DNA of 12,666 nucleotides from Escherichia coli (GTDB lineage: Bacteria; Pseudomonadota; Gammaproteobacteria; Enterobacterales; Enterobacteriaceae), in assembly GCF_003334315.1 (NCBI RefSeq), contig NZ_QOWR01000083.1. One strand, given 5' to 3'. The notes beneath the pieces are model-generated. The model was not told the origin of the DNA, did no database searches, and saw only the letters and a program-made list of their open reading frames with translations. Within the stretch, counting starts at the first letter, position 1; every line of letters starts with the position of its first letter. The position numbers and the translations under genes are program-made. This document shows positions 9,152 through 9,222 of the stretch, in pieces.

Positions 9152-9222
9152 TTTTTGACTCCTTCGCTTCCACTCTTTGAAGAGTAGAACGGCTTACGAG
9201 TAAGTCAAAAAACACACTCCGT

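Follow-up and report, generated by a model that had tools for sequence, protein, structure and literature searches.

The bfd and bfr genes of Escherichia coli form one operon whose products, the bacterioferritin-associated ferredoxin and bacterioferritin, are wanted under opposite iron conditions, and their uncoupling has so far been attributed to RyhB. The spacer between the two genes carries an inverted repeat beside the bfr start codon, which raises the question of whether the repeat is an element of translational or sRNA control, as a sequence-only reading of this DNA had proposed, or arose for other reasons. The stretch analysed here, referred to as the window, is a 12,666-nucleotide piece of the E. 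coli chromosome in which the bfd-bfr region is identical to that of K-12 MG1655 (Table 1).

The sequence-only reading had described a 71-nt spacer flanked by two arms, at 9152-9160 and 9204-9212. The length of the spacer from the bfd stop to the bfr start (9152-9222) was confirmed, as was the first arm, TTTTTGACT at 9152-9160. The second arm, AGTCAAAAA, lies at 9203-9211 (9204-9212 reads GTCAAAAAA), and both arms are inside the spacer rather than flanking it. The perfect repeat is 10 bp long, TTTTTTGACT at 9151-9160 with AGTCAAAAAA at 9203-9212 and 42 nt between the arms, and takes in the A of the bfr ATG. One arm adjoins the bfr start codon and the other starts 10 nt past the bfd stop. Between the arms is a second inverted repeat, 9168-9177 with 9180-9189, in which nine of ten positions are complementary.

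A repeat of this length is rarer than chance in the 91-nt junction, where 16 of 5000 dinucleotide shuffles reached 10 bp. The whole window contained five perfect inverted repeats of at least 10 bp (loop 3-60 nt), against 0.52 ± 0.67 in 100 dinucleotide shuffles. The repeat element is single-copy, with a median of one place per E. coli genome, which rules out a dispersed repeat of the REP, BIME or ERIC type. No Rfam family matched the window at its gathering score, and a permissive local search returned chance-level matches only (E 0.65 and 2.5).

Table 1. Features of the bfd-bfr region and neighbouring genes, in window coordinates
Feature	Position	Strand	Basis or remark
gspO	7969-8646	+	window gene
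bfr (bacterioferritin) CDS	8675-9151	-	ATG 9151-9149; ORF list and annotation in identical E. coli records
Predicted imperfect hairpin of read-through bfd-bfr RNA, 25 bp	9150-9213	-	RNA folding
Hairpin outer stem, 12 bp, built on the repeat	9213-9202 with 9161-9150	-	predicted fold
Hairpin middle stem, 4 bp	9199-9196 with 9167-9164	-	predicted fold
Hairpin inner stem, 9 bp	9189-9181 with 9176-9168	-	predicted fold; loop 9180-9177
Downstream arm on mRNA, AGUCAAAAAA	9151-9160	-	last G of Shine-Dalgarno, SD-AUG spacer and A of AUG
Predicted RyhB pairing site, bfr -24 to -3	9154-9175	-	-19.8 kcal/mol with RyhB nt 41-62; top site
Two GGA motifs of bfr leader	9171-9169, 9162-9160	-	in leader bound by CsrA; overlap predicted RyhB site
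bfr-only transcript start used in published constructs	9173-9175	-	22-24 nt before ATG; 6-8 nt past -10
-10 hexamer TACTCT of putative bfr promoter	9181-9186	-	16-nt spacer after TTGACT
Upstream arm, sense strand, TTTTTTGACT	9203-9212	-	T-tract and -35 hexamer TTGACT (9208-9203) of putative bfr promoter
bfd (bacterioferritin-associated ferredoxin) CDS	9223-9417	-	stop TAA 9225-9223; annotation in identical E. coli records
bfd promoter, TTGAAA-17 nt-TATTTT, source of read-through transcripts	9442-9470	-	consensus scan; Fur-repressed
chiA	9586-12279	-	window gene

The origin of the upstream arm is best seen by comparison with other species. Eighty Enterobacterales loci with Bfr were fetched, and in 79 of them bfd lay directly upstream, with spacers of 64-145 nt; 62 distinct bfd-bfr spacers were aligned. 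Four blocks were conserved at fixed spacing: a T-run with TTGAC(T/A), then 16 nt, then (T)CTAC(G/T/A)CT and, about 7 nt on, (A)GTGGAAGCGGAGG. Outside the bfr start, the only columns invariant in the 62 sequences were the T, A and T (T40, A41 and T45) at positions 1, 2 and 6 of the hexamer that reads TACTCT in the window. These three positions are the hallmark of the sigma-70 -10 element. The combination TTGAC[AT]-16 nt-TAnnnT was found in 56 of the 79 loci, which represent every sampled family but Morganellaceae, and the T-run followed by TTGAC in 48. Among the 61 motif-bearing loci the spacer was 16 nt in all but one (60/61), the -35 hexamer was TTGACT in 36 and TTGACA in 19, and the distance from the -10 to the ATG was 27-29 nt in 58. 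The window's -35 hexamer matches TTGACA at five of six positions; its -10 is a weak match (three of six consensus positions), and a simple promoter scan did not call it. In Morganellaceae the -10 is kept (as TACACT) and a TTGAC at 16 nt is absent. Judged by this conservation, the bases of the upstream arm belong to a conserved sigma-70 promoter for bfr, of which they form the T-tract and the -35 hexamer. A literature search for an E. coli 'bfr promoter' gave nothing relevant.

The published bfr constructs agree with such a promoter. In PMC6686035 an oligo and a '+1 to +50' bfr leader place the start between the arms, giving a leader of 22 nt, and Waters et al. (PMC5286369) used a construct named 'bfr -24 +48'. 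The start at 9173-9175 corresponds to about 3466747-3466749 in MG1655. The case for a primary bfr 5' end is made by the conserved motif together with the construct choices of these two laboratories. Because the start used in these constructs falls between the arms, bfr-only mRNA would lack the upstream arm and could not form a hairpin from the repeat.

RNA carrying both arms would have to come from the bfd promoter, for which PMC3946193 lists the same -35 and -10 hexamers (TTGAAA and TATTTT) for bfd-bfr. A bfd promoter fusion is repressed by Fur (PMC4676285), and several papers treat bfd-bfr as an operon. Under microaerobiosis bfd RNA changed by log2 -3.99 and bfr RNA by log2 +1.32 (PMC8910356), opposite behaviour that an internal bfr promoter fits. 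A published lacZ fusion that reached from the bfd promoter as far as bfr did not respond to Fur. A microproteome preprint that mentions bfd-bfr is concerned with the protein complex, not with the spacer.

On read-through RNA the two arms are predicted to pair. The minus-strand RNA from 9230 to 9140 folded at -27.6 kcal/mol (z -3.47), with none of 200 shuffles as good, and the same hairpin was kept in a 355-nt fold from the bfd leader to bfr +60. The suggestion that the bfr ribosome-binding region could pair with sequence soon after bfd is thus borne out by the predicted fold of the junction RNA. The hairpin is predicted to cover the GAG of the Shine-Dalgarno sequence (AAGGAG, 9164-9159), the spacer after it and the AU of the AUG. 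RNA folded from 9173, as in the bfr-only transcript, had no significant structure (-1.9 kcal/mol, z 0.3). Since pairing requires both arms, which are together on read-through bfd-bfr RNA and not on a transcript starting at -22 to -24, the fold holds, on paper, only for the former.

The predicted cost of the hairpin to initiation is considerable. Opening the bfr ribosome site (-13 to +3) would take 9.3 kcal/mol in the bicistronic RNA against 1.2 in the bfr-only RNA; when the upstream part was shuffled the cost was 4.5 ± 2.0 kcal/mol, and 6 of 200 shuffles were as high as the native sequence. As a physical prediction this masking is fairly safe. The predicted hairpin is of an ordinary kind, one that masks a ribosome site on read-through RNA, in an already studied regulatory region. 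Translational coupling from bfd was considered and set aside: the outer stem begins 9 nt past the bfd stop, and a terminating ribosome was estimated to open a few of the first pairs at most.

A stable stem-loop between two genes could also act as an intrinsic terminator or attenuator and stop transcription from bfd short of bfr, but this is scarcely credible here: the stem is followed by AUGAAAGG with no U-run, the U-run being inside the 5' arm, and a terminator scan that found two sites downstream of chiA found none between bfd and bfr. A separate candidate for a bfd terminator, a small CCG/CGG stem with the U-run, was rejected as too weak (3-4 bp) and not conserved.

The pairing was poorly conserved across the Enterobacterales. 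RNAalifold on the 62 spacers gave no consensus structure (0 pairs). When the E. coli structure was imposed on the alignment, 59% of cells were paired against 44-52% in slid controls, which is weak support, and the central pairs of the outer stem were kept in about one third of the aligned sequences. The downstream arm was not conserved: the stretch between the Shine-Dalgarno sequence and the AUG reads AGTCAAAAA in the window and GGGACTATA(T/A)A in Citrobacter, Enterobacter, Kluyvera and many others, and (A)GTCAA(A) was found there in only 2-4 of the 79 loci.

Within E. coli two alleles of the spacer were found. The K-12-type spacer is present in about 3160 of 5426 complete genomes, and a second allele, about 75% identical, in 2256 (about 42%), O157 strains included, where the context is tuf-bfd-bfr-prepilin peptidase-rpsJ. 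The second allele keeps the promoter (TTGACA-16 nt-TACGCT) and TGGAAGCGGAGG, and has GGGACTATAAAATG before the start codon. The repeat was absent in the three strains whose sequence was read, and the junction folded at -17.5 kcal/mol (z 0.16), no better than shuffles. The hairpin pairing is therefore, as far as sequence comparison and folding indicate, not conserved in other genera and absent from about 42% of E. coli genomes. Among the K-12-type alleles sampled, the repeat was invariant and the sole polymorphism in the spacer was in the -10, which read either TACTCT or TACGCT. The form with G, which disrupts one pair of the inner stem, matches the family consensus; this points to the DNA, and not the RNA, as what is constrained.

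These comparisons bear on whether the hairpin might be a site for RNase III or another nuclease that splits read-through RNA and gives the two halves different stabilities, in which case the 5' end at -22 to -24 would be a processed one. The near-continuous duplex of about 25 bp has the size typical of RNase III substrates, and processing of this kind would suit the opposite movement of bfd and bfr RNA levels. This explanation is nevertheless very improbable, given that the conserved TTGAC-16 nt-TAnnnT at the right distance accounts for the 5' end without processing, and that most relatives and 42% of E. coli genomes lack the hairpin and keep the same leader. The literature on RNase III, searched in connection with bfd, yielded nothing relevant.

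The proposal that the repeat suits sRNA control was examined through RyhB. That bfr is under RyhB control was upheld by published data: Ribo-seq in PMC4666370 placed it first among the repressed genes, with repression of log2 2.68 in ribosome footprints against 1.26 in RNA. In 2019 the RyhB site on bfr was described as one that 'has yet to be identified' (PMC6686035). In enterohaemorrhagic E. coli, a pXG10SF::Bfr fusion carrying -24 to +48 was repressed by RyhB (Waters et al., PMC5286369), and this fragment is without the upstream arm in either E. coli allele. RyhB control does not need the repeat, since a fragment lacking one arm is still repressed; bfr-only mRNA would lack that arm as well. 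The suggested role of the repeat in sRNA control was not supported.

Complementarity to RyhB was sought by comparing the core of MG1655 RyhB (nt 31-72) with 26-nt windows across a region that began 300 nt ahead of the bfr AUG and ended 80 nt past it; full-length RyhB in duplexfold gave unrealistic whole-molecule duplexes, and the core-versus-window search was used instead. The best site coincided with the conserved UGGAAGCG box, which sits between the arms, and not with the repeat as such. Its core, UGGAAGCGA (9172-9164), is predicted to pair with RyhB UUGCUUCCA, and a hybrid as strong was obtained with 7 of 500 target shuffles and 12 of 500 RyhB-core shuffles. The predicted site extends from the stretch between the arms into part of the downstream arm, and overlaps the Shine-Dalgarno sequence. 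With the E. coli RyhB core as query throughout, 72 of the 79 loci had their best hybrid on the (A)CUGGAAGC block. Two Providencia loci (L036 and L046) had ACUGGAAGC plus 2-4 more bases matching the complement of RyhB CAUUGCUUCCAGU, and in L046 ACUGGAAGCAAUG is an exact 13-nt complement of it. In the repeat-free E. coli allele the same RyhB site was the best within the -24 to +48 fragment. The bfr leader is also bound by CsrA (PMC6686035). The conserved UGGAAGCG box, immediately before the Shine-Dalgarno sequence and also bound by CsrA, is therefore the likely site at which RyhB represses bfr, independently of the repeat; pairing at exactly -24 to -3 is what the hybridization model would predict.

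It follows that a hairpin selected as a translational operator for RyhB or another sRNA, with the repeat as the functional core of post-transcriptional control, is improbable. The strong predicted fold that buries the Shine-Dalgarno sequence and the AUG, the rarity of the repeat and the standing of bfr as a RyhB target would all be expected of such an operator. It is largely refuted by the repression of the -24 to +48 fusion, and the RyhB complementarity lies outside the arms. The hairpin would moreover hinder RyhB rather than help it: opening the RyhB site was predicted to cost 17.4 kcal/mol in the hairpin, against 1.8 in the bfr-only leader and 8.5 after the upstream part was shuffled, where none of 200 shuffles reached the native value. 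The failure of RNAalifold to find a consensus, the small margin of the E. coli pairs over the slid controls and the absence of the repeat from about 42% of E. coli genomes count against it as well.

The explanation that best accounts for these results, and that is judged probable though well short of certain, is that the repeat is an overlap between an arm of the bfr promoter and the A-rich spacer between the Shine-Dalgarno sequence and the AUG, and that the hairpin masks bfr only on read-through RNA. The upstream arm (TTTTTTGACT) and the downstream arm (AGUCAAAAAA) would exist for separate reasons and be complementary by happenstance. Transcripts from the bfr promoter would begin inside the interval between the arms, leaving their ribosome-binding site open, and only read-through transcripts from the Fur-repressed bfd promoter would carry both arms. 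In the K-12-type allele such RNA would fold into the 25-bp hairpin, burying the Shine-Dalgarno sequence, the AUG and the leader to which RyhB and CsrA bind, and Bfr would be poorly made from the RNA that appears under iron scarcity, when Bfd but not Bfr is wanted. The hairpin would form in vivo and lower translation of read-through RNA, and it appears to be an accessory feature of one lineage and not a core regulator under selection. The rarity of the repeat and its invariance in the K-12-type allele are observations that run against a by-product and could reflect selection on RNA.

A neutral coincidence without measurable consequence, in which read-through RNA is too rare or the fold too easily opened by ribosomes and helicases, is unlikely but is a serious rival to this overlap of promoter and ribosome site; the sRNA operator, the RNase III site and the terminator are all less likely. 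Coincidence would be in keeping with arms that are low-complexity runs of T and A and are both explained by other constraints, with the lack of covariation, with a repeat-free allele that is common and evidently viable, and with the fusion carrying the whole bfd-bfr upstream region, which showed no Fur effect. It is harder to reconcile with the 16 of 5000 shuffles that reach 10 bp, and with a predicted masking about 8 kcal/mol above bfr-only RNA and about 5 above shuffled upstream sequence, which is large by the usual thermodynamic models of initiation. Read-through is also made plausible by the lack of a terminator between bfd and bfr and by the papers that treat the pair as an operon.

Masking of bfr in some form may extend beyond E. 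coli. In statistics that ignore shared ancestry, the native upstream sequence occluded the bfr ribosome site more than shuffles did (mean z 1.54; above 0 in 66 of 79 loci and above 2 in 31), with the Citrobacter/Enterobacter group near z 0. By the same kind of statistics, the native 16-nt promoter spacer added 1.5 kcal/mol on average compared with a shuffled spacer (above 0 in 43 of 54 loci), and a small hairpin in the region of the -10 and start site (mean z -1.39; below -2 in 18 of 62 sequences) recurred with differing complementary arms: CAGUUCU/AGAACUG, CCGGAUCUA/UAGAUACCGG and CGGUUAU/AUAACCG. The occlusion across genera and the effect of the promoter spacer hint that the masking of bfr on read-through RNA may not be just a by-product. 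Pyrimidine-rich promoter DNA opposite a purine-rich ribosome site could in itself produce all of these trends.

A tentative and rather doubtful extension is that the promoter DNA (T-tract, -35 and C/U-rich spacer) serves, across the Enterobacterales, as a conserved anti-Shine-Dalgarno sequence on Fur-derepressed read-through RNA. If this were true, the choice of promoter would set the translatability of bfr, so that iron starvation would give Bfd without Bfr and RyhB would not be needed, and the perfect 10-bp repeat of K-12 would be the strongest version of this masking.

The analysis places a putative conserved internal bfr promoter in the spacer, shows that RyhB control can do without the repeat and singles out the UGGAAGCG leader box as the likely RyhB site. 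The finding is incremental, in that it refines a known regulatory region and describes no new kind of system. It leads to the prediction that K-12-type but not O157-type strains translate bfr poorly from read-through bfd-bfr RNA.

Among known arrangements, the putative bfr promoter resembles other internal sigma-70 promoters in operon spacers, having TTGACT-16 nt-TACTCT with an upstream T-tract at a position conserved across families of Enterobacterales; it differs in its weak -10 (three of six) and in the Morganellaceae, which are without the TTGAC at 16 nt. The rpoS 5' leader is a self-inhibitory leader hairpin that sequesters the ribosome-binding site. Read-through bfr RNA would be alike in that an upstream pyrimidine-rich arm pairs with the Shine-Dalgarno sequence and AUG about 40-50 nt downstream and raises the predicted cost of 30S binding. 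Unlike rpoS-type leaders, the bfr upstream arm also serves as promoter DNA and is not carried by bfr-only mRNA, its pairing is not conserved, and we know of no activating sRNA, established or predicted, that opens the bfr hairpin.

The iscRSUA operon is subject to discoordinate control by RyhB (work of the Masse laboratory). Like it, bfd-bfr is an iron-regulated operon in which the upstream gene is wanted under iron starvation and the downstream gene is not, with RyhB complementarity at the ribosome-binding site of the downstream cistron, beside an intercistronic structure. In bfd-bfr, however, a separate internal promoter would supply the downstream gene, and the effect of the structure would be to hide the RyhB site, not to protect an upstream fragment.

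In sodB, RyhB pairs at the translation-initiation region. The bfr leader is comparable to targets of this type in the predicted complementarity of the central single-stranded region of RyhB (nt 41-62) to the leader and Shine-Dalgarno sequence, in repression that is stronger in footprints than in RNA (PMC4666370), and in the response of a short leader fusion; it differs in that the RyhB pairing described here is a predicted candidate. The CsrA-repressed bfr leader of PMC6686035 is the same 22-nt leader, and its GGA motifs fall in the 3' half of the predicted hairpin and overlap the Shine-Dalgarno sequence. The CsrA work covers the bfr-only leader, whereas the hairpin described here concerns the read-through RNA that extends into it from bfd.

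Complementarity to the RyhB core CAUUGCUUCCAGU was seen for the most conserved block of the bfd-bfr spacer, (A)CUGGAAGC(G/A)(G/A), and in a Providencia locus (L046) the match between the two was perfect over 13 nt. A further Providencia locus, L036, likewise extends the block by additional RyhB-matching bases (2-4 in the two loci). The block overlaps the GGA motifs of the CsrA-bound bfr leader, and because of this coincidence there may be competition, or cooperation, between the two regulators over one shared 10-nt stretch.

Alignment of 62 distinct spacers (A1) also showed a recurrent hairpin that encloses the 3' part of the bfr -10 hexamer and whose 3' arm falls where the bfr transcript begins. 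It recurs in Pectobacterium, Serratia, Rouxiella, Rahnella, Hafnia, and E. coli, the arms differing in sequence but remaining complementary, with a mean z of -1.39 and z < -2 in 18 of the 62 sequences. As modeled, the predicted hairpin would be limited to the read-through RNA, the bfd-bfr transcript that starts at the bfd promoter. The -10 hexamer itself varies within the K-12-type allele: this window and MG1655 have TACTCT, while strains HS, GPEC856, and CH4793 and one fetched locus (L001) have TACGCT. The latter is the Enterobacterales consensus, found in 41 of 61 loci, and its G disrupts one U-A pair in the inner stem of the long hairpin predicted for the read-through RNA.

Analysis of 5426 complete E. 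coli genomes indicated that the bfd-bfr locus (compared with L083, L084, and L085) is dimorphic. The K-12-type spacer, in the context chiA-bfd-bfr-gsp, was found in approximately 3160 of them. A second type, allele B, was found in 2256, including O157 strains; its spacer is about 75% identical to the K-12 type, and its context is tuf-bfd-bfr-prepilin peptidase-rpsJ, without chiA or gsp. In strain Z1323PEC0010 the start of bfr was K-12-like and the spacer was that of allele B, and by its sequence this strain looks like a recombinant at bfd-bfr.

Coordinates of features in and around the bfd-bfr region
Feature	Window	Strand	Remark
RyhB-complementary block	9164-9172		
-10/start hairpin	9168-9189		A1 columns 49-79
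bfr -10 hexamer	9181-9186		
Dimorphic locus	9120-9250		
bfd promoter	9442-9470		TTGAAA-17 nt-TATTTT; promoter scan
Promoter-like match	9003-8975		within bfr coding sequence
Terminator-like hairpin 1	9520-9544	minus	perfect 10-bp repeat AATGGGCTAC
Terminator-like hairpin 2	9556-9579	minus	
Further perfect inverted repeats, at least 10 bp	12427-12472, 12522-12545, 4856-4906		

Both terminator-like hairpins closely follow the end of chiA and precede the bfd promoter. The three further repeats comprised an A/T-rich one of 15 bp upstream of chiA, one within the gsp region, and AAAAGGGCGC/GCGCCCTTTT. The core of the last of these (AAAGGGCGC ... GCGCCCTTT) was also found after tuf in the allele-B-type comparison locus L083, and it looks like the tuf terminator.

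The bfd promoter was the only intergenic promoter-like match in a scan of 8600-9600, and a genomic SELEX survey gives identical hexamers for bfd-bfr (PMC3946193). A Fur box would be expected at this promoter. A published bfr'-'lacZ fusion extends from 9665, in the 3'-terminal part of chiA, as far as approximately 9100, near bfr codon 17 (PMC6686035), and thus includes the bfd promoter, the internal bfr promoter, and both repeat arms. Its authors saw no effect of Fur on the fusion and suggested that the RyhB site might fall outside it (PMC6686035). The predicted RyhB site, -24 to -3, falls within the fusion, so the missing Fur effect must have some other cause; derepression of the bfd promoter and induction of RyhB might, for instance, oppose each other.
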